This document shows, one piece after another, positions 1,026 through 50,885 of a stretch of 64,000 nt of DNA. The stretch's first letter is position 1. Each line of letters starts with the position of its first letter. Made by a program: the position numbers and the translations under genes. The notes under the pieces are model-generated. The model was given only the letters and a program-made list of their open reading frames with translations. It was not told the origin of the DNA and did not search any database. Source of the DNA: a virus (Duplodnaviria; Heunggongvirae; Uroviricota; Caudoviricetes); IMG/VR virus record IMGVR_UViG_3300042940_001755; one strand, 5' to 3'.

Positions 1026-1250
1026 ATGCAGGCGCACCGTTTCGCCGCCGCCACACCCGCCGCCGCCCGTTCTGCCCACCGCGCTGGCCCGACACGCCAC
1101 GCGCCGCGAAATTTTGACTCGCGCCCAGCCCCAGTTTCGTGCCACACGCGGCCAGTTTCGCGCCCCCCGCCAGCCCATGCGCCGCAAGGCCTCCGGGACT
1201 TTCCAGTGCTGGCGAGACCTGGCGCTCGTTACCTCGCGAGACCTGCGGAG
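1026..1250. repeat. GC-rich island 1 (~70% GC), member of a dispersed family (cgccgccgc ... gcgaaatt(t)tgact.cgcgc core)
   Basis: Local GC far above flanking sequence. Shares the core ccgacacg..cgccgccgcgaaatt..gac..cgcg with islands at 8268, 33395 and 50745. The ORFs that overlap it (941..1187, 1026..1442) are just translations of the repeat. Confidence 0.65.
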
Positions 1251-1330
1251 GGTAAGGTTTGGCTTACTGAGGGTAAGGTTTGGCTTACTGAGGGTAAGGT
1301 TTGGCTTACTGAGGGTAAGGTTTGGCTTAC
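1247..1330. repeat. 4 x 21-bp perfect tandem repeat GAGGGTAAGGTTTGGCTTACT; each unit holds a small inverted repeat (GTAAG..CTTAC)
   Basis: Read directly; it sits immediately 3' of the stop codon of CDS 1330..1671. Confidence 0.9.
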
Positions 1331-1671
1331 TAGATGTCTAAGTTTAAGGCATTATGGACAGCTCTGCTCGCCAAGGCATCTGCCTGCGCTTGGAGCTTCC
1401 CCTCTAGCATCTTCTCATGCTCTAGCTCCCATGCCCAATTAGTAGTATGAACTGTAATATGCTCAAATGGTTCCTTTGTCCGACCTCTGGCGTATAACTT
1501 TAGAGGTGGCTGGCTAGTGATAATCCTGATTGCCTCTTCACGTATCTTCTTCTTACTGGGAAGGTATTTATAGCCAGTGAGTATTCCGCTATCACTTCCT
1601 CCCGCCCATGCAGCGCCCCATGCAGCTACCCCTTGCTCTACTTTAACTCCTATATACACTGTCTTCATCAT
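1330..1671 (-). CDS. hypothetical protein (113 aa); start moved to MMKTVYIG
   Basis: The ORF track N-terminus (ATYFFFVRE) is a translation of the terminator A-run. An ATGATG at 1666-1671 is preceded by GGAGAGGAAG. Confidence 0.5.
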   Translation of the reverse strand: MMKTVYIGVKVEQGVAAWGAAWAGGSDSGILTGYKYLPSKKKIREEAIRIITSQPPLKLYARGRTKEPFEHITVHTTNWAWELEHEKMLEGKLQAQADALASRAVHNALNLDI

Positions 1672-1684
1672 CTTCCTCTCCCTC

Positions 1685-1738
1685 ACAAAAAAAAAATAGG
1701 TAGCAGGCACCCTCCGAAGAGAGCACCTGCCGGTAACT
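1685..1738 (-). terminator. Intrinsic terminator T1: GC-rich stem-loop followed by CCTATTTTTTTTTT on the minus strand
   Basis: rc reads GGCAGGTGCTCTCTTCGGAGGGTGCCTGC TACCTATTTTTTTTTTG. The architecture and tail are shared with 4688, 12978 and 44944. Confidence 0.7.
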
Positions 1739-1971
1739 GTTAATGTCTCACTGCTAGCGAGGCACGAGCCCCTTCAAAGAGCAATTCAGGCCTGACCCGC
1801 TTGTACTCAGCTCTGTCAGCTTCACTTTAGTACCAGCAACAAATTCTGCATCAAAGGAGTAGCGCTCGCTCACGCTCCCACATAAACACCCTGCCATTGT
1901 TATCTACTACTGACAAAGAACAATCACCACATTCCTCGATAGCTGACATGATATTCTTCAAGAGCACCATC

Positions 1972-2436
1972 TTACAACCCCTGCGCTAAAACATCGGCGA
2001 AGCTTCTAGCTGACTTCGAAGCTCTTTTATCGACCAACTCATTTCCCTCAATACCTGAATGGCCTTTGACCCACACCCACTCAATATCATGAGGAGCATG
2101 CGCGATATGCAGTCTCTCCCACAAATCAGCATTCTTGACAGGTTTCCCGTTAGCCAATTTCCAACCCTTAGCTTGCCACCCTGCTAGCCATTTAGTAAAG
2201 CCTTCAAGCACATACTTCGAATCTGTATACAACTTACGCACCACACCATCCTCTAGCGGCAATCGTTCTAAGGCGTCAATCACTGCCATCAACTCCATGC
2301 GATTGTTTGTCGTATGGTAGTCGCCACCACTGCCGAAACATACCTTTACATCACCTCTCATGAAGTCCCACGCCCATCCGCCAGGCCCTGGATTACCTAA
2401 ACAAGCACCGTCTGTGTATATCTCTGTTACCATCAT
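1972..2436 (-). CDS. rnhA: Ribonuclease HI
   Basis: IYTDGACLGNPGPGGWA .. TNNRMEL .. YTDSKYV .. VKGHSG..NE..D motifs of the RNase H fold. Confidence 0.85.
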   Translation of the reverse strand: MMVTEIYTDGACLGNPGPGGWAWDFMRGDVKVCFGSGGDYHTTNNRMELMAVIDALERLPLEDGVVRKLYTDSKYVLEGFTKWLAGWQAKGWKLANGKPVKNADLWERLHIAHAPHDIEWVWVKGHSGIEGNELVDKRASKSARSFADVLAQGL

Positions 2437-2666
2437 AAAATTGCCTCTATTGCTGCTACAAGTTTGGAAATTTCCTCAAAGGATAATCCTCGAGGAGTAA
2501 TTACTGAAAAGTCTAAATGGAAACAGCTCTCTCCCTTGTAAGGGGCTATTCGCTGGAGAGGTTCGACAATCAACACTCTGCCATTACTGCCACTGGGAAC
2601 ATCTATCTTTACCATATTAAGACATCCTGAAATTGTTAATAACTGCTTGCTTGAACGCCAACCCAC
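2433..2666 (-). CDS. hypothetical protein (77 aa)
   Basis: Co-oriented ORF whose end overlaps its neighbour (translational coupling). Confidence 0.4.
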   Translation of the reverse strand: MGWRSSKQLLTISGCLNMVKIDVPSGSNGRVLIVEPLQRIAPYKGESCFHLDFSVITPRGLSFEEISKLVAAIEAIL

Positions 2667-2901
2667 TCAACGAATCTGAAGTGGGGTAGCCGCATACTTC
2701 CACCCTGTTGGCACTAACGAAATACACAATCGTACCATCAGCACACTGCCACGATCTCTTATCAGGAGATAGTTCCCAGTCAAAACGACGAGTAGCCAGC
2801 TCGAACATCAGTTCTTCTTCTGACAAAGGAGGTACTCTTGAATACCACCAATACATCAAGATTAATGTCAACACAACAGCCAAGAAATAACTCATAATCA
2901 C
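2617..2901 (-). CDS. hypothetical membrane protein (94 aa, N-terminal TM helix)
   Basis: Hydrophobic N-terminus FLAVVLTLILMYWWY. Confidence 0.4.
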   Translation of the reverse strand: MIMSYFLAVVLTLILMYWWYSRVPPLSEEELMFELATRRFDWELSPDKRSWQCADGTIVYFVSANRVEVCGYPTSDSLSGLAFKQAVINNFRMS

Positions 2902-3281
2902 ACCTCGTACACATAGAGAGAATTCTGAGCGTCTACCGTAACTAGACGCGTTCTACTCTCGGTCCATCCAACAAACCGAAGAGGTCCTACAGTTCCCGGA
3001 AGGATCTCTAAAGCCGCTGGAAGCACTTGAGGATTCTGGCTATTTCCCCAAGCGCTAAATAACGCTTCAATGTTAGAGCGACCTTCTTCTAAATTAGAAG
3101 ACCCGATCAATGCACGATTTGGACTCACAATCAACCGCGTCTTAGCTCTTAATTGCCCTTCCTCATTACGAGTTACAAGCTGACATTCTGCCACATAGCA
3201 GAGGCCTGAAGGTAGCTGTTCTCTCTTCATTTCCCATGCCATGCTGTTTGCTACTGCTACTGTTAACGCTTCCAAAAACAT
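2898..3281 (-). CDS. hypothetical protein (127 aa)
   Basis: Co-oriented ORF tightly packed with neighbours. Confidence 0.45.
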   Translation of the reverse strand: MFLEALTVAVANSMAWEMKREQLPSGLCYVAECQLVTRNEEGQLRAKTRLIVSPNRALIGSSNLEEGRSNIEALFSAWGNSQNPQVLPAALEILPGTVGPLRFVGWTESRTRLVTVDAQNSLYVYEV

Positions 3282-3283
3282 TA

Positions 3284-4201
3284 CTATTCCTCGCCTTTAA
3301 GTAATTTAACAACACCGATATGCGACAGCTTAGCACCTGGTACAGATAGCGGCCAAGTAGTCACTTTAATATTTAGAACTTTCAAGAATACATCAGAATC
3401 TCCTCTCACCTCATAGTCCCTTTTAAGGCAATCCACACTATAATCACAGTGGAACAGTCCTAGGTTACTGAGCGCCAAATTGTTAGGATTCAAATCAATG
3501 AAGCCTACGTACATAAGAGGAGGGACTCTGCCATTGACGGAGATATAACATGTCGTTGCAATATCGTAATAGTAGCCGCCGCTTCTTTCACGTACTACAG
3601 GACGCTTATTAGTCATGTCTCTGACCCCATAGACTGAGATGTACGGTCTGCGTGAGAACAGCACACCTGTTTCTTCGTCATAATGGAACCACTCATTAAA
3701 CTTAGTAAGACTAAGAGGAGTTAGCCCTCCTGGCATGGCATTAACCGGCAATCTGTAGTCATAGAAATTACGCGCTAACGTCAACTCTAAATTACATAGC
3801 CGATTGTCGTTGACATCTCTGAAGCCCTGAGGGCCTACTTTATGGCGTACCCAATAATTAGCAGGGATTTGCCCGTTATGCTCTGTCCAGATAGCAGAGG
3901 CAACATCTAACAATAAATCTGTATAGGTCAGATATGTAGCTCTCTTGGACTCTCTGTAGTCCTCCTCGTCTACCACGCCTGGAAGTGTCTTTACTATTCT
4001 TACTTCTTCAGTCCAGTAGCGAGGATTCTGAATCCATCTTGGCGTTGTCTTGGGCGCAGTAGGAAATACAATGAGACCGTCCTCATCTTTGACCACGCCA
4101 TTTCTTAACTTCTTTGCAACCCCGACTGCGACTGCGTAACTCTTGTATCTAACATTCTGTTCACCGCCGTGGATTTCTCCTGTCACAAAATACATGCTCA
4201 T
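3284..4201 (-). CDS. Putative HNH (HNH_3-like, His-Me finger) endonuclease-domain protein, possibly a free-standing homing endonuclease
   Basis: VRHKVGPQGFRDVNDNRLCNLELT matches the H..(N/D)..DN..NLEL pattern of the HNH_3 family. The remaining ~150 aa are unassigned. Confidence 0.35.
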   Translation of the reverse strand: MSMYFVTGEIHGGEQNVRYKSYAVAVGVAKKLRNGVVKDEDGLIVFPTAPKTTPRWIQNPRYWTEEVRIVKTLPGVVDEEDYRESKRATYLTYTDLLLDVASAIWTEHNGQIPANYWVRHKVGPQGFRDVNDNRLCNLELTLARNFYDYRLPVNAMPGGLTPLSLTKFNEWFHYDEETGVLFSRRPYISVYGVRDMTNKRPVVRERSGGYYYDIATTCYISVNGRVPPLMYVGFIDLNPNNLALSNLGLFHCDYSVDCLKRDYEVRGDSDVFLKVLNIKVTTWPLSVPGAKLSHIGVVKLLKGEE

Positions 4202-4473
4202 CTCCGAGGTAGTCTAGATAATGGAATTACAGTGTTGTTCGTAATGGGCGCGTAAGAATACGGTTCGCCTGGAGGATGCATATGCAACCGGCCATGAGAG
4301 TCATATTGCTGAATCCACGATGGACCATTTTGGTAATTGCTACTTGTCGCAGTATGCCTACCAGATGCTGCGAATTTGCGAACACCACACTCATCGGTAT
4401 AGAAGCCTTCATGCGGCTGTTGCCCTATTGTACAGCAACCTGTCAAGGTTAACGCTGCTAATAAAATCTTCAT
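4198..4473 (-). CDS. Small lipoprotein (signal peptide MKILLAALTLTGC with lipobox LTGC)
   Basis: Internal Met followed by a classic SPII signal and lipobox. The upstream in-frame extension lacks an RBS. Confidence 0.5.
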   Translation of the reverse strand: MKILLAALTLTGCCTIGQQPHEGFYTDECGVRKFAASGRHTATSSNYQNGPSWIQQYDSHGRLHMHPPGEPYSYAPITNNTVIPLSRLPRR

Positions 4474-4687
4474 AGTATTGTCTCCTAAGGAAATATTACT
4501 GTATTGGTAATGCTGTCCCAAACTTCCGCTTGGGTTAATTGTCGCGCCAGCCTTAGAGCTGCATGCCGCTTAATGAAAGATACACACACTGCTACGCCCT
4601 GACAATCTGAACCCCTTGCCACATACCTTCTCGGTGCCCACTTCGTCCGAGGATCAACCACGGTAATTAACGTGCCCATACTTGCTC

Positions 4688-4738
4688 ACAAAAAAAAAAA
4701 ATAGGAAGGAGAGGACTGCCGTAATGACAGCCCTCCGG
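4688..4738 (-). terminator. Intrinsic terminator T2
   Basis: rc reads GGAGGGCTGTCATTACGGCAGTCCTCTCC TTCCTATTTTTTTTTTTTG. Confidence 0.7.
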
Positions 4739-4746
4739 TTAAAGAA

Positions 4747-4971
4747 CTACTCGCCAGTGAGACAGAGATTGACGATTGATTGCGCGTCTTTCTCAACACG
4801 CATGCAGGCCACAGCCTCCTTCAACTCAGCTAACACCCTGCTTAGCTCTGCATCGAGCTCCACAATGCGCTCAAACACTGGATCAGAGACTTCATTGCAT
4901 TCCACATCCAGCACTCGCACATCTACATTGACACGAATACAAACATTGTAATACATTTGCTGTTCTCCCAT
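4747..4971 (-). CDS. hypothetical acidic protein (74 aa)
   Basis: Co-oriented ORF. Confidence 0.4.
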   Translation of the reverse strand: MGEQQMYYNVCIRVNVDVRVLDVECNEVSDPVFERIVELDAELSRVLAELKEAVACMRVEKDAQSIVNLCLTGE

Positions 4972-4972
4972 A

Positions 4973-5554
4973 TTAGAACCCCTTTACGAATTCTTCAACA
5001 GTACCGTCAGCTACAGCTGCTTTATACAAAGCATACTTAGCGCGGCAAGCATTACCATGAGCGGCTGAGATTTCTTTAGCTGCCTTACAATCTGCCAAGT
5101 ACAGATCTCTACCAGCAGCTGCGGCTTCGTTCAATTTAGGCTTCACAGCCTCTTTAATTGCTTCGTAATTGGCAGTTACAAACACAGCTAAATCTTCATC
5201 ACCTTTCGCCAATTCTTTAACACCTGACGCAATCTTCGCAGCCAATTCAGCTGTAGAAAGCTTCGGCATTGCGATAGAAATACGGTCGGCATTGGCGATG
5301 AACCACGCGTCACCTGTAGCAGCTAAATGGTCCGCTAGCTCTTTCTTGACAGCAGCTGCATCGCTCTTAGTAATGCCCATAAGCGCAGTACGGTTGTCTA
5401 GAATCCAAGCAGTGATCTCTGCGTTGTCTTTGGTGATGATGTCTACCGCTGGCTTCAATTCAATTGCTGCTTGGGCCGCTGAGTGAGCTTTGGTAGCTTC
5501 AGCCATTGTAGAGAATTCAGTCATAACGCCGTTGATTTCGATTTTAATGCTCAT
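4973..5554 (-). CDS. Hypothetical Ala-rich protein, paralog family member 1 (start MSIKIEING)
   Basis: ~70% identical to CDS 7574..8155, including the identical C-terminus GNACR.KYALYKAAVADGTVEEFVKGF. A class A motif lies 60-80 bp upstream. Confidence 0.6.
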   Translation of the reverse strand: MSIKIEINGVMTEFSTMAEATKAHSAAQAAIELKPAVDIITKDNAEITAWILDNRTALMGITKSDAAAVKKELADHLAATGDAWFIANADRISIAMPKLSTAELAAKIASGVKELAKGDEDLAVFVTANYEAIKEAVKPKLNEAAAAGRDLYLADCKAAKEISAAHGNACRAKYALYKAAVADGTVEEFVKGF

Positions 5555-5609
5555 TGTAACACTCCTAAGGATTTGCGAGGAACGAGTCCCCATTAAATAA
5601 AGTTATGAG

Positions 5610-5632
5610 CAGTTGAAAGGCATGCTCAGGCC
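5610..5632 (-). promoter_or_regulatory. Class A conserved 23-bp upstream motif (sense GGCCTGAGCATGCCTTTCAACTG), candidate phage promoter
   Basis: One of six copies of the consensus GRCCTGRnCATGyCnyTnAACTG, each 25-85 nt upstream of a minus-strand start codon. Confidence 0.5.
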
Positions 5633-5643
5633 TTAACACAATA

Positions 5644-5829
5644 CTACGCGGGGGCACCCACTAAATTGAAGAACTTGATAAGTCTATCATAGTCCTCTTT
5701 CAACTCGATCGGACAATTGTCAGTCCCCACGAATTCCCAATCGGTCAATTTATTGACCTTCACAGTTTCGATCAGGACCAGCACGCTACCACTAAGACAC
5801 ACGATGGATAGCTCGAAGTCGCTGGTCAT
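5644..5829 (-). CDS. hypothetical protein (61 aa)
   Basis: Co-oriented ORF. Confidence 0.35.
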   Translation of the reverse strand: MTSDFELSIVCLSGSVLVLIETVKVNKLTDWEFVGTDNCPIELKEDYDRLIKFFNLVGAPA

Positions 5830-6161
5830 AATACAAGACTCCCGTACTCCTCTAGCCTGTCACTTAACATGTTCAGATTAAAGTCGTTGTCGTCTAGCTT
5901 CCACAAATAACGTACAAGTGGGCCGAGACCTTTACAATCATTCCAGCAGTACATCCAGTTGTCACCAATCCGGATGCGAGTGTCTGCTGTATTCAACATC
6001 TCGACAGACTCAATGTAGTCATCTGTTTCGAATTCTTCATAGTCGAAGGGCCCGTGCATGCGGAGCTCTTTGTCAGCCGCAGATGTAATTGACAATGTAA
6101 CGATTAGCGCTGCCATCTTAGTATCCTCCTTCGGATTTGTAAGACAAATCAAATGAACCAT
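5826..6161 (-). CDS. hypothetical protein (111 aa)
   Basis: Co-oriented ORF with overlapping stop and start. Confidence 0.45.
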   Translation of the reverse strand: MVHLICLTNPKEDTKMAALIVTLSITSAADKELRMHGPFDYEEFETDDYIESVEMLNTADTRIRIGDNWMYCWNDCKGLGPLVRYLWKLDDNDFNLNMLSDRLEEYGSLVL

Positions 6162-6774
6162 TCACTGTGTATCTCAACGCCCACTCGGACGCTTGACCTT
6201 CGTAATGGCGGCTGTGAACTAGCATTTCTGTTTGTTCAATAGCGCGGATCATGTCTTCCGATAAAGGAATGTCCATGTTTCTCCCCCACCATTCTTTCAC
6301 GTTGACCATCTTAGTAAGCGCAGCTACTTCAGAGTTAATGAACTTGGCTAAAGCGACTACTTCAGGATTCGCCGCATGTTCTGCAGAGAGGTATGTTCGG
6401 CTCGATAAGCTCAGATGGTCTACGTCTTCTAATATAACCCCAGCTTCTTCTAAGAAGTTGTTGAGAGGCCATTCAGCAGGACCATCTCCTGGCACCTTGA
6501 AGCCAGCCAACAAGGCAAATTCCAAGTCCCAAGGAACGGTCATGCTGAAGCTAACATCTTCAGCCTTAGGAAACCAGCCACCCCACTCCTTGTAACCGAA
6601 TCCAAATCCAGAGTGCTCACCGTACAGCGCCACTAACAGCTCAATCACATCACCCTGCAAGTAGCCTGGAACAGTTGCGAAGTTATCCTGAGTGATTACA
6701 ACACCTCTGTCTATACGGCGATCAGAAGGCATTGCTGCGATGATGTCATCTAATAATACGATATCGATACTCAT
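6118..6774 (-). CDS. hypothetical protein (218 aa)
   Basis: Co-oriented ORF. Confidence 0.5.
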   Translation of the reverse strand: MSIDIVLLDDIIAAMPSDRRIDRGVVITQDNFATVPGYLQGDVIELLVALYGEHSGFGFGYKEWGGWFPKAEDVSFSMTVPWDLEFALLAGFKVPGDGPAEWPLNNFLEEAGVILEDVDHLSLSSRTYLSAEHAANPEVVALAKFINSEVAALTKMVNVKEWWGRNMDIPLSEDMIRAIEQTEMLVHSRHYEGQASEWALRYTVNGSFDLSYKSEGGY

Positions 6775-7202
6775 TTTGAAACTCCTAGGTGGTTGTTAAG
6801 TGCTTTAGGCAATCGTGTAATTCTCGCAAAACAGTCAGGATCGTCAGCTTCAACATCTCCAATGTTCTCAATGTAGACGTCTACACAATACGCCAAGTCA
6901 TTGAACTGTTCAGGTGTCAAGTCTGTCAAAGAGAAGACAGTCTCAACATAAGCTGGCTCTTCCTTCTCGTAGATGCCAGGAAGCTTAGCAGGATACTCTG
7001 TGGCAAGACCTTTCAACTTGTCAAGCAGATTGTCTAGAGTGTCCACAAACTCCGCTGAGTAAGATTCCTCTTTCTCGGTGTACGCTAAATCAAACGCCAT
7101 TTCCGCTGCGTAAGCCATCATGTTGAGCTCTAACGCTGTGAATGTAGTTACCATTCTAATTCTCCTAGTTGATTGCCACGATGTTGACATAGTACTTCGC
7201 AT
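6771..7202 (-). CDS. hypothetical acidic protein (143 aa)
   Basis: Co-oriented ORF. Confidence 0.5.
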   Translation of the reverse strand: MRSTMSTSWQSTRRIRMVTTFTALELNMMAYAAEMAFDLAYTEKEESYSAEFVDTLDNLLDKLKGLATEYPAKLPGIYEKEEPAYVETVFSLTDLTPEQFNDLAYCVDVYIENIGDVEADDPDCFARITRLPKALNNHLGVSK

Positions 7203-7488
7203 CCAGATTGTCTAGCAGCGTAGGTGGGAGCAACAGCTCAATGCAACATTCGTTACAGGAATAACTTGTCACATCTGATACACGGATGTCTTCAACATGT
7301 TGCCCTTCGCACCACTGCTCCGCTCTTTCTGCGGCGGTAGTAAGCGCGAACTCCCAATCGGTCAAGGGACTGCCCATGTAAGTGTCTACAACAGCGCTGC
7401 AATATCTCGTAGTATACAAGACATGTGCCATGTATTTAGTTCCGATAGTTGCGTTGCGTACTGCGTCTTTGATAGCTTGCTCAATCAT
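7165..7488 (-). CDS. hypothetical protein (107 aa)
   Basis: Co-oriented ORF. Confidence 0.45.
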   Translation of the reverse strand: MIEQAIKDAVRNATIGTKYMAHVLYTTRYCSAVVDTYMGSPLTDWEFALTTAAERAEQWCEGQHVEDIRVSDVTSYSCNECCIELLLPPTLLDNLDAKYYVNIVAIN

Positions 7489-7518
7489 TTTGAATCTCCA
7501 CTAGTTAATTAAATACTA

Positions 7519-7555
7519 CGTTAAACGTTTAACCCCCGCAATCCATTATGGACTA
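7519..7555. other. Perfect 10-bp-stem hairpin TTAACCCCCG-(17 nt loop containing CCATTATGG)-CGGGGGTTAA in the intergenic region
   Basis: Read directly; the loop motif CCATTATGG also recurs in the left-end repeats. Confidence 0.5.
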
Positions 7556-7573
7556 CGGGGGTTAATTTGCTTC

Positions 7574-8155
7574 TTAGAAGCCTTTTACGAATTCTTCAAC
7601 AGTACCGTCAGCAACAGCTGCTTTATACAAAGCATATTTTGAACGGCAAGCATTGCCATGAGCTGCACTGATTTCTTTAGCTGCTTTAACGTCAGCTAAG
7701 TACAAGTCACGACCTGTTGTAGCTGCTTCGTTCAATTTAGGCTTCACAGCCTCACGAATTGCTTCATAATTGGTTGTAACAAACGCAGCAACTTCTGGAT
7801 TGCCAGAAGCTAAAGTTTGAATACCGGCAGCAACCTTAACAGCTAATTCAGTTGCAGTTGGTTTAGCTACAGCGATTGAAATGCGTTCTGCATTAGCAAT
7901 CAACCAAGCATCGCCTGAAGCAGCGATATGGTCAGCTAATTCTTTCTTAGCTGTTGATGTATCAACTTTGGTTAAACCAACTAAAGCAATACGGTTGTCA
8001 ATGATCCACTGGCTTAAAGCTTCGTTGTTGTTAGTCAATACGTTGACAGCAGGTAACAATTCGATAGACGCAGTGTAAGCAGAATGAGCTTTAGTTGCTT
8101 CTGCCATTGTGTTGAACTCTACCATTTCGCCATTGATTTCGATTTTAATGCTCAT
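7574..8155 (-). CDS. Hypothetical Ala-rich protein, paralog family member 2
   Basis: Paralog of 4973..5554 (same N-terminus MSIKIEING and same C-terminus). Confidence 0.65.
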   Translation of the reverse strand: MSIKIEINGEMVEFNTMAEATKAHSAYTASIELLPAVNVLTNNNEALSQWIIDNRIALVGLTKVDTSTAKKELADHIAASGDAWLIANAERISIAVAKPTATELAVKVAAGIQTLASGNPEVAAFVTTNYEAIREAVKPKLNEAATTGRDLYLADVKAAKEISAAHGNACRSKYALYKAAVADGTVEEFVKGF

Positions 8156-8267
8156 TGTAACACTCCTAAAGGATTTGGCTTTCGCCGTTTAAATAAAATT
8201 AGTTAAGATAAGTTATAGGGAGTTCAACCCCGAACACGTCAAATCCACGTCTGACGCGCTCCTATCA

Positions 8268-8400
8268 TTATGTATCGACAGCGAGGGCGCACGCCACCGC
8301 CGCCGCACACATTTCTAGCCGCCCCCGCGCCCCGACACGGCACGAACACGCCGCCGCCGCGAAATTCGCAGACGCGGGAGAGGACTTACGCGGTTACTGA
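8268..8400. repeat. GC-rich island 2
   Basis: Contains ccgacacggcacgaacacgccgccgccgcgaaattcgcagacgcgg; same family as 1026, 33395 and 50745. Confidence 0.65.
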
Positions 8401-8903
8401 ATAGCCCCGCGCTTACACTCACTTGCGGGACAGAAGGGATGTTGATCCTCCTGAACCTTAGTGTACCGCTCCTTGATGTACTGAGGAACAAAACTCTTGT
8501 TGGTCTTTAAGCGACAAAGATCCAAGCCCTCACTCTCATCAGCGTAGATTGCTTCACCGCTAGTAGACCACCGTAAAGGCAGCCACTCACCTTTGTCCAA
8601 GTACGCTCCATGTATTGCCTCATCTATTTCAGCAAATAGACGCACCGCCTTTCCACTCTTGGTTTCGCACAAGCTCTTCACAGTGAACACTTGAGTTGGC
8701 CGCAGTGACCAATCCACATTGTTAGGACTGATACCCGACAACCACCATCTGTGGATTTCAGGTACATCATCCACGAAGTCAATGATTCCGTAGATGTACG
8801 TATCATCGACTCTGAATATCTCCACAGGATGTCCAGTTGCTGTGAACATCTTTTGTGATACCTTGATAGCAGGTTTGTTCTGCCCATAATTACCCATTGC
8901 CAT
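8394..8903 (-). CDS. hypothetical protein (169 aa)
   Basis: Co-oriented ORF. Confidence 0.5.
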   Translation of the reverse strand: MAMGNYGQNKPAIKVSQKMFTATGHPVEIFRVDDTYIYGIIDFVDDVPEIHRWWLSGISPNNVDWSLRPTQVFTVKSLCETKSGKAVRLFAEIDEAIHGAYLDKGEWLPLRWSTSGEAIYADESEGLDLCRLKTNKSFVPQYIKERYTKVQEDQHPFCPASECKRGAIQ

Positions 8904-9312
8904 TGTTGCCTCCTTTGTGTGAAATATTGGCGGTTAGTGGAATTTCAGAGATGGTGTATTCCCGATCACCGACTATATAGCAGCGCATGCCTGCCAAGCT
9001 AAATAGCGCGTCGTAAGAGGTGCTTGCGGGAAATGCAAGACGCAAGTCGTCAACAGTAGGCCGTGCCTCCCAGATAGCGACCACCCCAATACTAGAGTGC
9101 AATAGCCACAATATAGCAGGCTGGGTTGAAGACATGCACTTACGAGCCTTCACCAAGCCATCGGCCACCATCGCACCTACGAGTGATTGCATGGTGCAAT
9201 CTAGCTCGCTGCGGAGAGTCTCTAACGCTGCAGGGACACGTACTGTGATACTACGTTGGTTGACACGAAGGGGTGCTCCGATTGACTTCTTGATAACGTC
9301 TTCAATGCTCAT
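8890..9312 (-). CDS. hypothetical protein (140 aa)
   Basis: Co-oriented ORF. Confidence 0.5.
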   Translation of the reverse strand: MSIEDVIKKSIGAPLRVNQRSITVRVPAALETLRSELDCTMQSLVGAMVADGLVKARKCMSSTQPAILWLLHSSIGVVAIWEARPTVDDLRLAFPASTSYDALFSLAGMRCYIVGDREYTISEIPLTANISHKGGNNGNG

Positions 9313-9509
9313 CTCAAACTCCTTGCAAAATTGCGGATAGCTACTGAGGCAGCAAATGCCTCTTCGTAGGTGTCATAACAGAAGCCATTACGGACTGCTG
9401 CTAAATACTGTGGGTCTTTCTTCATTTCAGGAGGCAAATCAGCACCTTCCACTAATTCGTCATCGTTATCAAACATTGGTGTGCAAATAAAGGTGTTTTG
9501 TTCTTCCAT
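9309..9509 (-). CDS. hypothetical protein (66 aa)
   Basis: Co-oriented ORF. Confidence 0.35.
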   Translation of the reverse strand: MEEQNTFICTPMFDNDDELVEGADLPPEMKKDPQYLAAVRNGFCYDTYEEAFAASVAIRNFARSLR

Positions 9510-9691
9510 TAGTCGATCTCCCGTATCAGAGTGTAATATATCGCACCAGGAAATAGAAGATCTGTTCCTGGCAAGTGCATAGCACCAATGATGTGCCAGC
9601 CTTCTGCCAGTTCTCTGTTAAGCGCGTTTAAGCTTATTTGCATATGTTGCACTAATACTGCTACTTTTGTTTCTTGTACCATTTTATCTCC

Positions 9692-10018
9692 TTAATTTCC
9701 AAACAGCAACATTAATGACAATGCCAAAGGATCTGTGAGATCCTTGACAGGCTCTTTTTGGTATATCCCATGCATACCTGAGTGACTTAACGTAAAACAG
9801 AACCCATCCTTACGCAATACCAATGTTTTAGTCTGGTCATTGGTGTTAGGTACATGCCCCCAAGGAGTGACAGTGTCCACAAACTCCGGAACTTGCTCAG
9901 ACAGCTCCACTGTAACCTCCCAGTCGTCAGTTAAGGCGGTATCCACTAATAAGTCCAAGAAGACTCTCCCCAACCCTGCAGGGCTATTTTGAACATAAAA
10001 CTTGATAGCGTCCCTCAT
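9692..10018 (-). CDS. hypothetical protein (108 aa)
   Basis: Co-oriented ORF. Confidence 0.45.
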   Translation of the reverse strand: MRDAIKFYVQNSPAGLGRVFLDLLVDTALTDDWEVTVELSEQVPEFVDTVTPWGHVPNTNDQTKTLVLRKDGFCFTLSHSGMHGIYQKEPVKDLTDPLALSLMLLFGN

Positions 10019-10584: not shown

Positions 10585-10610
10585 TGTATCTCTCCTAAAG
10601 GATTTAAAGG

Positions 10611-10632: not shown

Positions 10633-10639
10633 TTGTAGA

Positions 10640-11175: not shown

Positions 11176-11176
11176 A

Positions 11177-42008: not shown

Positions 42009-42111
42009 ACAACCTCCTCTTTTGTAGCGACCAGCTACTGCTGCATATTCCGATGCAGGCCAGACTATATCACGATAGCAAATAGCTACCTCCCCCGTTT
42101 CCTGACACTTG

Positions 42112-43653
42112 TCAGTACGCCTTACGGCTAGTCGTTGAACCTTCTTTCAAACCATACTTCCCAGCATTATTTGAAACCTTGGCTGCTGATTGGCCATTAG
42201 CATCACACCATTGGGCTGTTCCAGCAATTAAAGGGATTTTACAAGCGCCTGTAATTAAACGCTTGACTATCTTTCTACGTTCTTTCTTGTCCTTGATACG
42301 ATTCCAGAATATGAAACAAGCAGAATCTTCTAGGAAATGATTTGCCTCTCTGTAGTTCTTTAGTCGTTCCCCTAAGACAACTCTGAGATCACTCCCACGC
42401 TCTGCAGCTCGCACTTCAGCCTTCATTTCTGTAACGACTGTGACGTAATTATCAGCAGCCGCCACTAATTTAGGGTCTAATTCTGCGATTGTCAGCGCGA
42501 TAAAGTTCCAGAGAGAATTTGCAACATACGCATACAAGTCACCAGGAAGTACTGATTTGACAAGATTCACATAGGGCGCAGATGTTTCATCTCTCGTCAG
42601 CATAGCTAGATGTTGACTTCCATTGGTGCTTCCGTCTATGAAGCACTCAAGATGGCTCACAAAAGTCTCTGGATTGCCACTTCGCCATGCTGCTTCATAC
42701 TCCATACAGGCTGCTAAGAACTGCCAGCACTTGTCAGCGCCCATCCACCCTTTAAAGAGCTTGGGTGATGTAGCATACGCCATGATTAGCTCATGATTAT
42801 CATCTACCCACTGCACTCTTTCCTCCAAAGGGATCTTGTCAGTCTTTGCTTTGTCTTCTCTGGCAGAAGTGCCCGCCCAGTTACTGGCAATTGATATCTT
42901 CAGCCATTTAAAGCCAATAGCTCCTAGCGGTTTTGCATCAGCTCGTAGTAGAAGGCCTTTGGCAACATCAGCGCCTTGTTCATGGAGGTAAGCAGATGCG
43001 ACATAGATACGTCCTCTGAAGTCTGTGTAGTAACCATGGTAGAAGATAGCACCTGCCAGATCTTGCGCCATTGTCAGGACTGTGTTGACTTCTCTACCTT
43101 TGGTGATTCTTGCCTCCTTTGAGACTTGTTTCCAAATATCTGAGAAGGCTTCCTCACGGTACTTATGCGCCCATATAGCAATTGCCAGCACTCTCTCGTT
43201 TACTTTCCATCCTACTGCTTGGGCACGGTTAACAGCGTCCAATACCATTGCAGGAACAGCCGGTAATACTGCTCGCGTCTTGATAAGTGGGTAAGTCAGC
43301 TGATCGTGTGTCCTAGAAGTCCAAGGAGAGTAAGGAATAAGTGAAGGGTAGACTGTAGTACTCTGTTTGGAACACTTCCGCCAAGCCTCCACAATAGCCT
43401 CATCATTCAGAACAGCCACTGTGTAGGCACTCTTCTTCCCTATACGTTCTACCTGTATCTTGAGAATCCTGGCAGCTTCAAGGTCGTAGACAAGATCTGC
43501 TGCTGCTTGTGCTCTTACTCTGGAACTGGGATCTCTGGAGAGTTTCGAGCCGAGCGCTGTCAGCACCTCTGACAACACTATTGGCTCATTATATTTAGCC
43601 CTTGTGTACAGAAACAACACCTCCGTAACAGTAGGACAAAGTTCACTAAGCAT
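42112..43653 (-). CDS. Single-subunit RNA polymerase, N-terminal segment (exon 1 plus read-through into the insertion)
   Basis: YHGYYTDFRGRIY and ECFIDGSTNGSQHLAMLTRDE align to T7 RNAP DWRGRVY and DGSCSGIQHFSAMLRDE. The last ~90 codons have no RNAP similarity, so they are probably intron or insert-derived. Confidence 0.8.
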   Translation of the reverse strand: MLSELCPTVTEVLFLYTRAKYNEPIVLSEVLTALGSKLSRDPSSRVRAQAAADLVYDLEAARILKIQVERIGKKSAYTVAVLNDEAIVEAWRKCSKQSTTVYPSLIPYSPWTSRTHDQLTYPLIKTRAVLPAVPAMVLDAVNRAQAVGWKVNERVLAIAIWAHKYREEAFSDIWKQVSKEARITKGREVNTVLTMAQDLAGAIFYHGYYTDFRGRIYVASAYLHEQGADVAKGLLLRADAKPLGAIGFKWLKISIASNWAGTSAREDKAKTDKIPLEERVQWVDDNHELIMAYATSPKLFKGWMGADKCWQFLAACMEYEAAWRSGNPETFVSHLECFIDGSTNGSQHLAMLTRDETSAPYVNLVKSVLPGDLYAYVANSLWNFIALTIAELDPKLVAAADNYVTVVTEMKAEVRAAERGSDLRVVLGERLKNYREANHFLEDSACFIFWNRIKDKKERRKIVKRLITGACKIPLIAGTAQWCDANGQSAAKVSNNAGKYGLKEGSTTSRKAY

Positions 43654-45450: not shown

Positions 45451-45717
45451 TCATTTGTTGAACCATTTCACCAAGCTGTAAACTGTCAAGCCTACAGCGG
45501 CGCCTAAGATAATTGGATTAACCGTTACAACTGCTGCTGCTGCTGAACGGGCCACGAATGGTAATACAACTTCCATACCAAGTGCTGTCACTGCCACTTG
45601 GGTTTCTACTGCAGCCAAACCTACGCTGACGACCATTGGCGCCATTTGTGTTGCCACTGCTGTTCCTGCTGCTGCTCCGAATGCTACTGCTGCTGTGTCT
45701 TGTGTTACTACTTTCAT
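45451..45717 (-). CDS. Small Ala/Val-rich membrane protein, family A copy 1 (88 aa)
   Basis: ~85% identical to 48677..48943; 2-3 predicted TM helices. Confidence 0.55.
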   Translation of the reverse strand: MKVVTQDTAAVAFGAAAGTAVATQMAPMVVSVGLAAVETQVAVTALGMEVVLPFVARSAAAAVVTVNPIILGAAVGLTVYSLVKWFNK

Positions 45718-45733
45718 GATAATACTCCTAAAT

Positions 45734-45810
45734 TGTGTTTAAAGTAGAGAGACGGAATTGTCTCTCTACCTGAATAGACTGTGGTCTGGTAAAACGGGAT
45801 ATCCGCTGCC
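45734..45810. repeat. Post-stop hairpin-pair element copy a (AGAGAGACGGAATTGTCTCTCT plus ACGGGATATCCG)
   Basis: Perfect 8-bp inverted repeat around GGAATT plus a GGATATCC palindrome; four copies in 45.7-48.7 kb, each starting at a stop codon. Confidence 0.7.
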
Positions 45811-46231: not shown

Positions 46232-46298
46232 GGATAAGGCAGAGAGACGGAATTGTCTCTCTGCAGCGGTCTGATGAAACGGGATATCCGTTACCGCA
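46232..46298. repeat. Post-stop hairpin-pair element copy b
   Basis: Same two palindromes. Confidence 0.7.
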
Positions 46299-47077: not shown

Positions 47078-47136
47078 TTTGAATCTCCGAATAAAATAAT
47101 TGTGACCGAATTGGTCATGAAAGGATACCTTTATCT

Positions 47137-47163
47137 CTTTCATATAAGATACTGCTTTCCGCG
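47137..47163 (-). promoter_or_regulatory. Class B T7-promoter-like motif copy
   Basis: Sense CGCGGAAAGCAGTATCTTATATGAAAGAGATAAAG. Confidence 0.5.
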
Positions 47164-47173
47164 TATTTGCTGC

Positions 47174-47461
47174 TTACACTCGTGACACTGAAGAGAAAAT
47201 AGCGATGATCAACCCACACATCAACATCCACCCAACGAGATAGATTGCCATCAACACTTTGAAAGAAAGAATCGCGACTGGAAGGAATGCTGCTCCGCAG
47301 TACGCTTCTGCAATAACGCCAATAATTGAAGCAGACACTGCTGCATCAGCTGTTACTTCAACTAATTCTGCTGCTGCTGTTTTAACTTCTAATACGCTTT
47401 TTACTGCTTTGATTGCTAATGAAACTGCAACTGCTGTGCCTAAGATTGCTAATGGTAACAT
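47174..47461 (-). CDS. Small hydrophobic membrane protein, family B copy 1 (95 aa)
   Basis: Paralog of 48271..48561; multiple TM segments. Confidence 0.55.
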   Translation of the reverse strand: MLPLAILGTAVAVSLAIKAVKSVLEVKTAAAELVEVTADAAVSASIIGVIAEAYCGAAFLPVAILSFKVLMAIYLVGWMLMCGLIIAIFSSVSRV

Positions 47462-47476
47462 GATAATACTCCTGAA

Positions 47477-47552
47477 TTGTGTTTAAAGTAGAGAGACGGA
47501 ATTGTCTCTCTACCTGAATGACCAGATTGTGGCGCAGGATATCTGCTGCTGG
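47477..47552. repeat. Post-stop hairpin-pair element copy c (variant second hairpin GCAGGATATCTGC)
   Basis: Same first palindrome. Confidence 0.7.
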
Positions 47553-48270: not shown

Positions 48271-48561
48271 TTAAATACGTGATGATGATGCTGAAAGAAC
48301 AAAGAGAATAAATCCGCACATTAGCACCCACCCCACAAGGTACATTGCCATGAAGATTTTGAAAGAAAGAATTGCAGTTGGTAAGAATGCTGCTCCAAAG
48401 AAAGCTTCAGAAACCATACCAACGATTACTGAAGATACTACTGCATCAGCTGTTACTTCAACTAATTCTGCTGCTGCTGTTTTAACTTCTAATACGCTTT
48501 TTACTGCTTTGATTGCTAATGAAACTGCAACTGCTGTGCCTAAGATTGCTAATGGTAACAT
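48271..48561 (-). CDS. Small hydrophobic membrane protein, family B copy 2 (96 aa)
   Basis: Paralog of 47174..47461. Confidence 0.55.
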   Translation of the reverse strand: MLPLAILGTAVAVSLAIKAVKSVLEVKTAAAELVEVTADAVVSSVIVGMVSEAFFGAAFLPTAILSFKIFMAMYLVGWVLMCGFILFVLSASSSRI

Positions 48562-48573
48562 GGTAATACTCCG

Positions 48574-48597: not shown

Positions 48598-48677
48598 ATG
48601 TGTAAAGTAGAGAAACGGAATTGTTTCTCTACCTGAATGGACTGCGGTCTGATGAAACGGGATATCCGTTACCGCAT
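48598..48677. repeat. Post-stop hairpin-pair element copy d (AGAGAAACGGAATTGTTTCTCT variant)
   Basis: Compensatory changes keep the stem paired. Confidence 0.7.
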
Positions 48678-48943
48678 TATCTGTTGAACCATTTCACCAA
48701 GCTGTAAACTGTCAAACCGACAGCTGCACCGAGAATGATTGGGTTAACTGTTACAACTGCCGCAGCTGCTGAACGTGCTACAAATGGTAATACAACTTCC
48801 ATACCAAGTGCTGTTACTGCGATTTGTGATTCTACCGCTGCAAGACCAACGCTCAAAACTACTGGCGCCATTTGTGTTGCCACTGCTGTTCCTGCTACTG
48901 TTCCTGCTGCTGCTGCTGTTACTTCTTGTGTTAATGCTTTCAT
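48677..48943 (-). CDS. Small Ala/Val-rich membrane protein, family A copy 2 (88 aa)
   Basis: Paralog of 45451..45717. Confidence 0.55.
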   Translation of the reverse strand: MKALTQEVTAAAAGTVAGTAVATQMAPVVLSVGLAAVESQIAVTALGMEVVLPFVARSAAAAVVTVNPIILGAAVGLTVYSLVKWFNR

Positions 48944-49004
48944 GGTAATACTCCGAATAATTTAATTGTGACCGGAATTGGTCGTTGAAGGGATATCTTT
49001 ATCT

Positions 49005-49033
49005 CTTTCATATAAGATATCCCCTTTTGCGCG
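49005..49033 (-). promoter_or_regulatory. Class B T7-promoter-like motif copy
   Basis: Sense CGCGCAAAAGGGGATATCTTATATGAAAGAGATAAAG. Confidence 0.5.
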
Positions 49034-49034
49034 T

Positions 49035-49253
49035 TTACATGTCTACCAATTTAGACTGAAACTTGTCCTTCAGCACACAATGCACGCACACATGTACATG
49101 CTTGTTTGTTGCGCTGGAGAAATGGTAAAACGAATCGTAACGCTCTACTCCACCACATTCATCACAATACCCGTGATTGCGATCTGGAGTGGTGATGACA
49201 ACTTCTTCTTTAGATTTTACTGATGACATGGTAATACTCCCAAATGGATTCAA
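49035..49253 (-). CDS. hypothetical zinc-ribbon protein (CDECG .. CVHC)
   Basis: Two CxxC pairs. Confidence 0.4.
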   Translation of the reverse strand: MNPFGSITMSSVKSKEEVVITTPDRNHGYCDECGGVERYDSFYHFSSATNKHVHVCVHCVLKDKFQSKLVDM

Positions 49254-49626
49254 TTAATTGCGTGCCCGTGGACCAACTGCGAAGTAGAGCTTGTCACGCA
49301 AGCGCCATTTCTTCGTGGCAATGAGACCTTCGTGGAACTCGTGATACAAGATCACCGCTGCATACGCTACCGTTGCAAGCAGCGTTGTCCAAATACATGC
49401 CAACCCATACGTGCTCATACGCTCATCCCTGCTAAGATTTTCTCTACCCGTTCTGCCAAAGAATTGAAATGGTCTTCGCTGTCGCCACTCAATTCTTTAA
49501 AGGCAACCCCTGCTGCTGTTAAAATCTCTGTCAAATCTTCTACATCTTGAACTTCCAATACTGCACATAGTTTTAAACTAATCATAACGCCCTCGCTAAA
49601 GTTAGGAGCAGAACCATTTCTACTCC

Positions 49627-49654
49627 TTTCATATAAGATACTGCTTTCTGCGCA
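49627..49654 (-). promoter_or_regulatory. Class B T7-promoter-like motif copy, abutting a GAAAGGAG RBS
   Basis: Sense GCGCAGAAAGCAGTATCTTATATGAAAGGAGTAGAAATG; it precedes two small untracked ORFs (11 aa, then ~56 aa at about 49415..49585). Confidence 0.5.
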
Positions 49655-49655
49655 T

Positions 49656-49928
49656 TTACACTCTTATGGAACGCACCCAACTGTTGTACTCTTCTGAACC
49701 GACAATGCCGAAGGCCTTCTCAGCTGGTGTTAACACTTTGCACCCAGCCTTCTGCCACACTGCTTTCACTTTGTTGTCTGTTGTCGGCAAGCAAGCTGCT
49801 TGTGGCTCCCCATTCTTATTCACAATATACAGAATTGCGAATTGTGATTGCCAATAACGGCTGGACAGTTCTTTTGGGGTTGCAAAGGTTGGCATCCCAG
49901 GCAATACTTCGTAAGTCTCAAATAACAT
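49656..49928 (-). CDS. hypothetical protein (90 aa)
   Basis: Co-oriented ORF. Confidence 0.4.
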   Translation of the reverse strand: MLFETYEVLPGMPTFATPKELSSRYWQSQFAILYIVNKNGEPQAACLPTTDNKVKAVWQKAGCKVLTPAEKAFGIVGSEEYNSWVRSIRV

Positions 49929-49987
49929 AATATTTACTCCACTAGATTGATAAAAGGCGCAGAACCATTCCTACGCCTGCCACTACA

Positions 49988-50485
49988 TCACAACTTAATC
50001 GCTTTGATTATTTCATTATCCGTGAGTCTACTGAGATACTTTACATCGAGACCTATAACAGTTAACTCCGCATGCACTTCAATTAGTTTAGCCCGTTCCC
50101 ACTTATGCAAAGCCTCAATAGGTGCAACTTTCAACAGTCTACCGAGAGCAAGCTTGGTGTACAGTTCCCCTCTCCTTTTTGCCTCTGCTTTTGACATACG
50201 CTTTAGCGCGGCCAGATTAGCAACTATGAAGTTAACATGGATCACTGATTTGACCCTCTCCGTCTGGAACTCAAGACTGACGGAGTTTGCGGCTTCCTCG
50301 TAAGTCCTGTATAGCTTCCCGGCTGCCAGGAATAGAGGTGTTTTAGTTGTCACCTCCATGCAGTGCTTGACTACAGCGCCAGGACCGATGTCTACTATGG
50401 GCGTAGTGGTGCAGCTGAGGTTCAGCGCACTATTGAATTCCTCTACAGAACCCTCCCATTCTTTTAGTTCGATAAAATTGTTCAT
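49988..50485 (-). CDS. hypothetical protein (start MNNFIELKEW)
   Basis: The class B motif overlaps the ORF-track N-terminus; GGAGAACTATTATG. Confidence 0.45.
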   Translation of the reverse strand: MNNFIELKEWEGSVEEFNSALNLSCTTTPIVDIGPGAVVKHCMEVTTKTPLFLAAGKLYRTYEEAANSVSLEFQTERVKSVIHVNFIVANLAALKRMSKAEAKRRGELYTKLALGRLLKVAPIEALHKWERAKLIEVHAELTVIGLDVKYLSRLTDNEIIKAIKL

Positions 50486-50524
50486 AATAGTTCTCCTAAA
50501 TGACTGAATAACGGGATTGTTATC

Positions 50525-50554
50525 CATATCATATAAGATACCTAAAAATGCGCG
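50525..50554 (-). promoter_or_regulatory. Class B T7-promoter-like motif copy
   Basis: Sense CGCGCATTTTTAGGTATCTTATATGATATGG. Confidence 0.45.
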
Positions 50555-50730
50555 AGTACAAAGTCTCGATTATTCAGTCCTATGAATCTCCACCTAGCTA
50601 TCTTCGCCGAGAAGTCAACTGCTTCGCCATTATCGTCTATTAGCACCAGCTCATCTAGCTTAACTTCATTGAGGCTTCTCAGGAACTCTGCCGCCGCCTT
50701 TACTTCGCTTATCTTGAATTCTTTATTCAT
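50542..50730 (-). CDS. hypothetical protein (start MNKEFKISEV, 62 aa)
   Basis: The longer track ORF N-terminus is a translation of GC island 4. Confidence 0.35.
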   Translation of the reverse strand: MNKEFKISEVKAAAEFLRSLNEVKLDELVLIDDNGEAVDFSAKIARWRFIGLNNRDFVLAHF

Positions 50731-50744
50731 AATTGCCTTACTCG

Positions 50745-50885
50745 TTGTTGTGAATTTTGGCGACACGCGCCCAGTCTGCCCACCACGCTGCCCCGTGACT
50801 CTCACCCGCGCCGCCGAAAAACGCGCCACACGCGCCCACAGCGGCTGCAGAACTAGTACACTCGCGTGGCTAGTCAGGAATGCCG
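50745..50885. repeat. GC-rich island 4
   Basis: Contains cccgcgccgccgaaaaacgcgccacacgcgcc; same family. Confidence 0.6.

Follow-up and report, generated by a model that had tools for sequence, protein, structure and literature searches.

The stretch of DNA analysed here (64 kb, referred to below as 'the window') is IMG/VR record IMGVR_UViG_3300042940_001755, from a Caudoviricetes phage, and the elements under study are four GC-rich islands located between its genes. Measured over 80 nucleotides (nt) at a time, the GC content of the window averages 46.6% (standard deviation 5.9%). It reaches at least 64% at four places only, all intergenic: island 1 (I1) at 998-1263 (onset at 984 or 998; maximum 81%), island 2 (I2) at 8248-8413 (79%), island 3 (I3) at 33392-33550 (76%) and island 4 (I4) at 50735-50887 (75%). 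A first-pass annotation of the sequence had proposed four islands of about 70% GC, and the scan recovers exactly these and nothing else. No further island was found in the 8.7 kb to the left of the window or the 4.9 kb to its right. The islands are not artefacts, since they are identical in independent assemblies (ENA, JGI, NCBI, Logan); for I4, identity holds in three assemblies.

Every substantial open reading frame (ORF) of the window is carried by the minus strand, to which the four islands are also assigned. I2 lies between a gene of 169 amino acids (aa; 8394-8903) and one of 193 aa (7574-8155), and I3 between the gene for FEN (33550-34467) and an 80-aa gene (33103-33345), both islands being within the DNA-metabolism block. 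I1 is found at the end of this block, with structural genes beyond some 1.4 kb of non-coding DNA. I4 occupies the junction of the late or lysis region and the early-type region: it is flanked by the last gene of the former, a small ORF at 50870-51127 whose sequence looks holin-like, and by the first small early-type gene (50542-50730). The onset of an island coincides with the upstream stop codon or lies a few nt from it. The islands had been described as directly following a stop codon and preceding the next gene; this is valid on the minus strand only, because all genes lie there, and it applies to I2, I3 and I4 but not to I1, which is separated from its upstream gene by a repeat array and followed by about 1.4 kb devoid of genes.

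The window is part of an uncultured phage of about 107.6 kb. Exact-protein look-ups placed it within metagenomic contigs of 107,624-107,977 nt from several independent samples, with break positions that differ among contigs. Since these contigs run on past window position 1 into more genes (about 1.4 kb of gene-free DNA, then structural genes), position 1 is not a genome end, contrary to what had been supposed for the surroundings of I1. The phage encodes a T7-like single-subunit RNA polymerase (RNAP), whose gene is interrupted by a group I intron with an HNH endonuclease, and the window also carries genes for a family-A DNA polymerase, a primase-helicase, a helicase, a ribonucleotide reductase, NAMPT, FEN, RNase H and two paralogous T7-type single-stranded DNA-binding proteins (SSB), followed at 51-64 kb by tail-fibre and other structural genes. 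No tRNA or tmRNA gene was found. Positions 1-20000 and 900-1400 showed no nucleotide-level similarity to cultured phages, and, judged by the polymerase, the nearest relatives in culture are roseophage DSS3_VP1 (Naomviridae) and Pelagibacter phage Kolga, at about 32-33% identity. Protein searches (FEN, and an alignment of the 193-aa protein) gave no close relatives in IMG/VR or the JGI metagenome contigs.

Relatedness among the islands was assessed with Smith-Waterman local alignment scores, compared with those of dinucleotide shuffles. The z-scores were 6.9 for I1-I2, 5.9 for I1-I3, 7.8 for I1-I4 and 4.7 for I2-I3; the similarity of I4 to I2 and to I3 was not significant. Alignment scores against reverse complements remained at the null level, and therefore all copies have a single orientation, which is that of the genes. 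We conclude that the four islands are one related family beyond their composition, as the annotation had proposed; the shared blocks that it quoted are present in I1 and I2, but only approximate in I3 and I4. The sense strand of the islands has an excess of G over C (skew of 0.15 to 0.22), and internal duplications and (GGC)n tracts occur within them.

The family is built on a core module of about 100 nt, with the order A/T-run, GCGGYG, CGTGSC, 21 nt, YAGA, then 41-42 nt, which in I1 and I2 ends with an AT-rich box, (A)CATAATGATRGG. The I2 module (8257-8352, profile score 60.8 bits) reads CGTGCC-N21-TAGA-N41-CATAATGATAGG, the match to the box pattern being at 8314-8344. I1 has the same layout plus one extra base: its module of about 94 nt (1015-1108) consists of an A/T-run and GCGGCG followed by CGTGGC-N21-CAGA-N42-CATAATGATGGG, with the pattern match at 1071-1101, and this layout is supported by an anchored alignment (the profile score, 60.5 bits, serves for boundaries only, as I1 was a training member). 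The promoter-like box CATAATGATGGG itself is an exact pattern match at the downstream edge of I1 (1017-1028). Its pattern has two exact copies only in the window, and its placement relative to the other boxes matches that in I2 and the I2 orthologues. A pattern search located CGTGGC-N21-CAGT, with the spacing of I1 and I2, at 33426-33456 in I3. The core of I4 (50739-50817) was matched by the profile with 33.1 bits, and a 48-nt block including GGTGGGCAGA is common to I4 and I1. The pattern CGTGSC-N21-YAGW has three matches in the window, each in an island (I1, I2, I3), for a chance expectation of 0.14. The sequence profile of the module detected no additional copies in 198 kb, and neither periodicity nor A-tract phasing within the islands was significant.

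The I2 locus could be compared in three lineages: the window phage, L027 (of the lineage of L016, discussed below) and L029. Between the homologues of the 169-aa and 193-aa genes, both relatives carry an orthologous island (L027 2016-2196; L029 7110-7336) of 65-69% GC, compared to a background of 47%. The I2 orthologues retain 64-74% GC and more G than C, and the 72-nt island stretch upstream of the conserved box is 39-54% identical across them, random sequences giving about 30%; among the same I2-bearing relatives, nucleotide identity of the adjoining 193-aa gene is 69-74%. The conserved box is the 14-mer ACATAATGATAGGA (8260-8273 in the window), identical at 14 of 14 positions in the three lineages and found nowhere else in about 200 kb searched with up to two mismatches. 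It is a candidate promoter-like or protein-binding box. The spacing CGTGSC-N21-YAGA-N41-CATAATGATAGG is free of indels in all three orthologues; the 72 nt from CGTGSC to CATAAT contain no indel among them, and one in the paralogue I1. The spacer from the box to the start codon does differ in length (110, 88 and 77 nt). In the relatives, I2 remains linked to the 193-aa gene downstream, while the gene upstream has strongly diverged; on this ground, the module appears to belong as a 5' element to the unit that follows it, and not as a 3' element to the gene that precedes it. The stable presence of I2 as an orthologous feature of three lineages speaks against a purely selfish nature. GC islands are lacking in two distant relatives, L018 and DSS3_VP1.

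The islands do not code for protein, in this phage or in its relatives. The copies differ by indels whose lengths are not divisible by 3, their homologous blocks lie in different reading frames, and the ORFs present inside the islands on both strands, which had rightly been considered spurious, encode low-complexity Gly/Ala/Arg sequences. An antisense ORF starting in the 14-mer meets a stop after one codon in L029. A read-through or leader peptide was likewise rejected, the frames not being conserved and the peptide start 'MIG' being all that is in common. Nor do the I2 orthologues behave as a structured non-coding RNA, as they have neither conserved secondary structure nor covariation: no helix of at least 4 bp is common to the three in ungapped register (82 of 200 column shuffles give one or more), and the RNAalifold consensus is weak (-13 kcal/mol, with many broken pairs). 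Fixed spacing of the boxes without conserved pairing points to a reading at the DNA level, by proteins; an extra, composition-only effect of the RNA is possible.

The islands were compared with the defining features of known classes, namely terminators, Rfam families, structured RNAs, coding genes, palindromic or inverted-repeat mobile elements, sigma-70 promoters and host-derived repeats. Since the testable features fail in each case, the islands were not filed in any known family. A consensus terminator scan of positions 1-10000 listed sites at 1702-1731 and 4710-4736, none in I1 or I2, and a scan of the whole minus strand for a hairpin and T-run gave 0 in any island. Folding of the sequence before each A/T-run showed no common hairpin and U-run geometry, I4 alone having a weak 4-8-bp stem with U5. 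A search for inverted repeats yielded only imperfect ones (arms of 9-17 nt, 71-89% complementarity), which were confined to I1 and I2. The earlier view that the islands are not palindromic terminators thus holds for all four. At the Rfam gathering threshold, the sole match in the window was the group I intron at 42041-42323, and searches of each island in E-value mode gave only chance-level matches (best E = 0.26). As for promoters, the annotation had seen no resemblance to the promoter classes, a statement to be qualified because I1 and I2 terminate in the conserved AT-rich, promoter-like box. Its CATAAT is a good -10 hexamer, but inspection of I1, I2, L027 and L029 revealed no conserved -35-like hexamer 16-18 bp upstream, and a consensus promoter scan of 1-10000 placed no site within I1 or I2. 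Motifs of the sigma-54 and ECF types gave partial matches by eye only, with inconsistent spacing.

Our tentative reading, which we favour without regarding it as probable, is that the islands are DNA-level control modules, read by proteins and placed at transcription-unit boundaries, with a promoter-like box in I1 and I2. With a T7-like RNAP and genes that all run one way, the phage needs internal boundaries, and in favour of this reading I1 and I4 lie at junctions between blocks of genes. The family would be one lineage-specific, non-coding, cis-acting module of about 100 nt, present in several copies. Its GC-rich spacer, G-biased on the sense strand, drifts freely in sequence under a constraint on composition and length, and its boxes would be read by the T7-like RNAP of the phage, by another factor, or by both. 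Such modules could mark the borders of transcription units in a genome where all genes point one way: the stable GC tract would hinder, or insulate against, transcription running on from the upstream gene, and the AT-rich box at the downstream edge would be a point where a phage or host polymerase restarts transcription, serving the 193-aa gene after I2 and the 1.4-kb non-coding region after I1.

Several observations weigh against this interpretation. There is no conserved hairpin and U-run in the islands, and ordinary intrinsic terminators occur elsewhere in the phage (near 1.70, 4.70, 12.99 and 44.95 kb, with 11-13-bp stems and U8-12 tails). The argument from spacing draws on three orthologues only. 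The box CATAATGATRGG occurs just twice in about 77 kb and is absent from I3 and I4; it cannot be a general promoter of the phage. No candidate box-binding protein turned up; the neighbouring 193-aa protein, predicted to be all-helical (pLDDT 83), gave neither a significant PDB match nor an informative fold match. The excess of G over C on the sense strand of the islands only modestly exceeds the genome-wide skew. Finally, I3 is dispensable, being absent from two relatives (L016 and L021) in which the flanking genes are syntenic.

A first alternative is that the islands are replication origins or sites of primer formation, at which a G-rich RNA would form an R-loop on the C-rich template and be processed into a primer. 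The T7-like RNAP would transcribe from or through the module, the GC tract would limit unwinding, and the AT-rich stretch downstream would melt, in the manner of the T7 primary origin, ColE1, the mitochondrial CSBII or the yeast mitochondrial ori/rep elements. The phage does encode a replication set of T7 or mitochondrial type (single-subunit RNAP, family-A polymerase, primase-helicase, SSB) together with RNase H and FEN, all islands and orthologues have a G-rich sense strand, and in I2 and both its orthologues the promoter-like box is directed into AT-rich sequence. Clusters of G3 tracts, motifs of G-quadruplexes and R-loops, were recognised by eye in I1, I2 and I4, but they are missing in I3 and in the two orthologues. 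Moreover, the promoter-like box has the GC tract on its upstream side, so that an R-loop would require read-through transcripts; four origins in 77 kb would be many, and I3 is missing in relatives. No island coincides with an inflection of the cumulative GC skew, and matches to DnaA boxes were at chance level, with no clustering and none near any island.

I1 differs from the other islands in its surroundings. I1 is abutted, as had been reported, by four perfect 21-bp direct repeats (GAGGGTAAGGTTTGGCTTACT) at 1248-1331, each with a 5-bp inverted repeat. Another assembly of the same phage, L001, has two copies (17575-17616) and not four, and the copy number of the array therefore varies within the population. 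I1 itself contains degenerate direct repeats (1131-1245), in the form of one pair of units at 1131-1170, with a distance of 21 nt, and another pair at 1209-1245, with a distance of 24 nt. Iteron origins such as RK2 oriV and pPS10 combine iterons, an AT-rich region and a GC-rich segment, and I1 likewise is flanked by a direct-repeat array and by a repeat-rich, AT-rich non-coding region. I1 is the only island of which this can be said: the 21-bp repeat has no copy outside 1248-1331, I2, I3 and I4 lack iterons, and no initiator gene was recognised among the genes examined. The T7 primary origin consists of tandem phage promoters followed by an AT-rich region. This phage shares with T7 the type of RNAP, DNA polymerase and primase-helicase, and in I2 and its orthologues a box followed by AT-rich sequence, but the T7 origin has neither a GC-rich tract nor upstream boxes, whereas the islands exist in four copies and their promoter is putative. 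On balance we consider an origin function rather unlikely. The first-pass suggestions of a binding array, or of an origin or structural element, fit the short boxes at indel-free spacing and the absence of a conserved helix; the genome-end context is wrong.

Two further features were observed in the 1.4 kb without genes that separate the DNA-metabolism block from the structural genes. At window positions 1-400 (L001 18480-18830) there are two tandem 161-bp repeats, 93% identical, with more than 10 copies of the palindrome CTTTAAAG; they may be a protein-binding array. The 485-nt segment that lies downstream of the I1 promoter-like box (about 560-1040; L001 17846-18330) contains several long perfect hairpins and folds more stably than 100 of 100 shuffles (z = -2.8). 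It has no ORF and no Rfam match, and may be a structured non-coding RNA or a leader.

A second alternative is that the islands are selfish or neutral GC-rich repeats, comparable to yeast mitochondrial GC clusters or to miniature inverted-repeat transposable elements, which would have spread into spacers by duplication or recombination and have no function for the phage. A dispersed multi-copy family with fast divergence is consistent with this, and so are the internal duplications and (GGC)n tracts, which suggest slippage or merging. The genome is also rich in selfish elements (a group I intron with HNH, a LAGLIDADG intein, SegE and HNH genes). The I3 locus also speaks for it. In L016, the FEN protein is 75% identical to that of the window (71% at the nucleotide level) and the downstream 80-aa gene is the same, but the spacer between these two genes, 204 nt long in the window, is an AT-rich sequence of 62 nt; in L021 it is 58 nt long. 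Given that the spacers are far shorter in both relatives and the FEN and 80-aa genes are syntenic, I3 is an insertion/deletion polymorphism between related phages with conserved flanks, of the kind for which the annotation had proposed a test. Presence/absence polymorphism, one mark of mobile elements, was found at this locus only. The L016 and L021 spacers cannot be aligned with that of the window, so that no insertion boundary can be placed and no target-site duplication defined. In two further contigs the spacers measure 548 nt after FEN (contig of 7585 nt) and 388 nt after the homologue of the 169-aa gene (contig of 1048 nt). As a side observation, the L021 spacer (1095-1155) contains a 35-nt element, a 7-bp GC hairpin followed by U5, which has the appearance of a common terminator but also a weak similarity to the I3 core (GCGGTCGTGTCAGTTTCGGCGCGGC; p about 0.008). 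Perhaps, then, islands can develop out of simple terminators or be reduced to them.

Other data speak against selfish repeats. The idea of a miniature mobile element is favoured by the presence or absence of I3, but disfavoured by the lack of terminal inverted repeats and palindromes and by the stability of I2 at one locus in three lineages, with GC content, boxes and spacing kept, unlike decaying junk in a 46% GC genome. The single orientation of all copies also speaks against it. Scans with exact patterns, to which the following negative results are limited, revealed no insertion in host genomes or other phages: patterns derived from the islands gave chance matches only, or nothing, in IMG/VR, the JGI metagenome contigs and bacterial genomes. 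A 20-base block of I1 and I4 had 5 matches in 596 Gb of genomes, all in high-GC genomes, with no local GC contrast and no extended similarity, and a host-derived repeat (of REP or BIME type) was rejected. Overall, a selfish origin appears unlikely.

In a third alternative, the islands would act as RNA, through composition only: stable, irregular folds would protect the 3' end of the upstream mRNA against exonucleases, provide processing sites, or give small stable RNAs. In the sense transcript, the islands make up 15 of the 16 most stable 140-nt segments of the window (z of -3 to -5), with -55 to -68 kcal/mol per 140 nt compared to a mean of -35; the antisense transcripts of the islands have unremarkable stability. 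This stability is due to composition alone, since shuffled versions fold equally well (single-sequence z-scores of -1.9 to +1.5), which would fit the conservation of composition only. The start of the islands at or near the upstream stop codon, and the plain GC hairpin with U5 that L021 has instead of I3, are in line with such a role. Against it stand the lack of Rfam matches and the lack of a common helix or of covariation. In addition, folding that depends only on composition does not explain the exact spacing and the invariant AT-rich 14-mer, and the I2 orthologues track the downstream gene, the upstream one having strongly diverged. We judge an RNA-level function to be quite unlikely. Lastly, a by-product of local mutational or repair bias, such as GC-biased gene conversion at recombination or endonuclease hot spots, is very improbable: retention of composition but not sequence, and several homing endonucleases that make local repair tracts, would agree with it, but the conserved boxes, fixed spacing, common orientation and family relationship are left unexplained, no endonuclease gene adjoins I1, I2 or I4, and to our knowledge GC-biased conversion has not been established for phages.

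Returning to control modules read by proteins, a comparison with known systems brings out both likenesses and differences. Yeast mitochondria offer one close parallel. Their transcription and replication enzymes derive from T7-like phages, and both systems have a T7-like single-subunit RNAP and a family-A replication polymerase. In the yeast ori/rep elements, GC clusters adjoin a short AT-rich promoter (ATATAAGTA). By eye, this promoter matches the phage sequence ACATAATGA at 6 of 9 positions, the promoter and origin roles of the latter being putative. Like the phage islands, the yeast mitochondrial GC clusters are short, GC-rich and dispersed in the spacers of a genome of lower GC content (PMC4478555), and in both cases sequence turnover is fast and copies are gained or lost between relatives. 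The yeast clusters are 30-60 nt long, palindromic and often flanked by putative target-site duplications (PMC4478555), whereas the islands are 130-260 nt long and non-palindromic, without inverted repeats. There is no sequence similarity between them, and the genomes differ in GC content (46% for the phage, 17% for yeast mitochondrial DNA). By analogy with these elements, the islands might represent an undescribed class of phage cis-element, in which a GC 'clamp' maintained for its composition, protein-binding boxes at fixed spacing and an AT-rich promoter for a T7-like RNAP would serve both as a transcription boundary and in replication priming, and which would be the phage counterpart of the yeast mitochondrial ori elements made of GC cluster and promoter. 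We regard this proposal as doubtful.

The islands also resemble the PeSL cassettes of T4-type phages in being repeated intergenic cassettes located at gene boundaries, with indel differences between close relatives (PMC2839356, PMC4122927). PeSLs combine AT-rich sigma-70 early promoters with a terminator-like stem-loop (PMC2839356, PMC4122927); the islands differ from them in having no conserved stem-loop, and the phage's own PeSL-like cassettes, at 45-50.6 kb, are distinct. With intrinsic terminators, the islands have in common a high GC content, a position directly 3' of genes and a very stable RNA, and a terminator-like short GC hairpin followed by U5 is present in I4 as well as in the L021 element. 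They are, however, 5-8 times longer than intrinsic terminators and lack the conserved hairpin and U-run. Overall, we rate the islands as a variant of dispersed intergenic regulatory or mobile cassettes.

The cassettes of the early-type region (45-50.6 kb) lie between small paralogous genes and are repeated. They consist of a conserved promoter-like box of about 35 nt (TGTAAAcGCGCA...GTATCTTATATGAAAGAG), found at 13333-13373, 47131-47171, 48999-49039, 49620-49660 and 50520-50560, and of a hairpin (AGAGAGACAATTCCGTCTCTCT), found at 45740-45767, 46235-46262, 47484-47511 and 48603-48630. In their layout they resemble the PeSL cassettes of T4-type phages. The copy at 13.3 kb would drive a lone 83-aa gene, which is followed by a terminator. 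A different hairpin motif, CTG-[RRNCA]-TGYCnyTnAAC-[TGNYY], occurs in 5 copies just 5' of ribosome-binding sites, in the spacers 5594-5647, 14960-15016, 20444-20498, 20693-20755 and 23225-23295. Its stem varies compensatorily (GAGCA/TGCTC, GAACA/TGTTC, GGACA/TGTCC, GGTCA/TGACC), and its function could be that of a processing site or of a middle-gene promoter element.

Other observations concern the genes of the phage. In the RNAP gene (40853-43653; exons 43653-42112 and 41617-40853), two ORFs are separated by the group I intron (42041-42323; Rfam, 68 bits), which carries an HNH-AP2 ORF at 41568-42008; in the distant relative L018, the RNAP gene is likewise split by an HNH gene. The primase-helicase (29201-32209) is 1002 aa long, compared to 586 aa in a relative at 75%, and contains Hint and LAGLIDADG homing-endonuclease domains; on the basis of these domains, its gene is intein-bearing. 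A Hint domain is present in the primase of an 84% relative too. The window encodes a NAD+ salvage pair (16022-17341 and 18234-19193), composed of NAMPT and a bifunctional NMN adenylyltransferase-Nudix protein, as well as an RNA/DNA ligase-like protein (11177-12448) and an SPFH/Band-7 protein (21492-22766). To the right of the window (L030 1-9990), the ORF cut by the window end proves to encode a 2751-aa protein, upstream of which is a protein of 4092 aa, a very large size for a virion component, with domains of tape-measure-like and glucosaminidase type. Diverged paralogues, in tandem or nearby, are found for the 193-aa helical protein (4973-5593 and 7574-8155, 72% aa identity), for the T7-type SSB (38701-39192 and 39291-39782, 89% nucleotide identity over 300 nt) and for small early genes (45453-45731 and 48679-48957; 47193-47472 and 48293-48572). 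The contig ends of some assemblies coincide with these paralogue repeats.

If the islands are control sites, they would show how a one-directional phage of about 107 kb with a T7-like polymerase partitions its genome into units, and the 14-mer and GC tract would be candidates for use with an orthogonal polymerase, as promoter and insulator parts. The link between a GC tract and a promoter for a single-subunit RNAP, if true, would provide a phage-side comparison for the unexplained GC-cluster and ori architecture of yeast mitochondria. If they are selfish repeats instead, they would add to the small mobile DNAs of phages a new kind that is not palindromic. The islands illustrate elements that ordinary conservation screens miss, which retain their composition, their length and a few short boxes but not most of their sequence.

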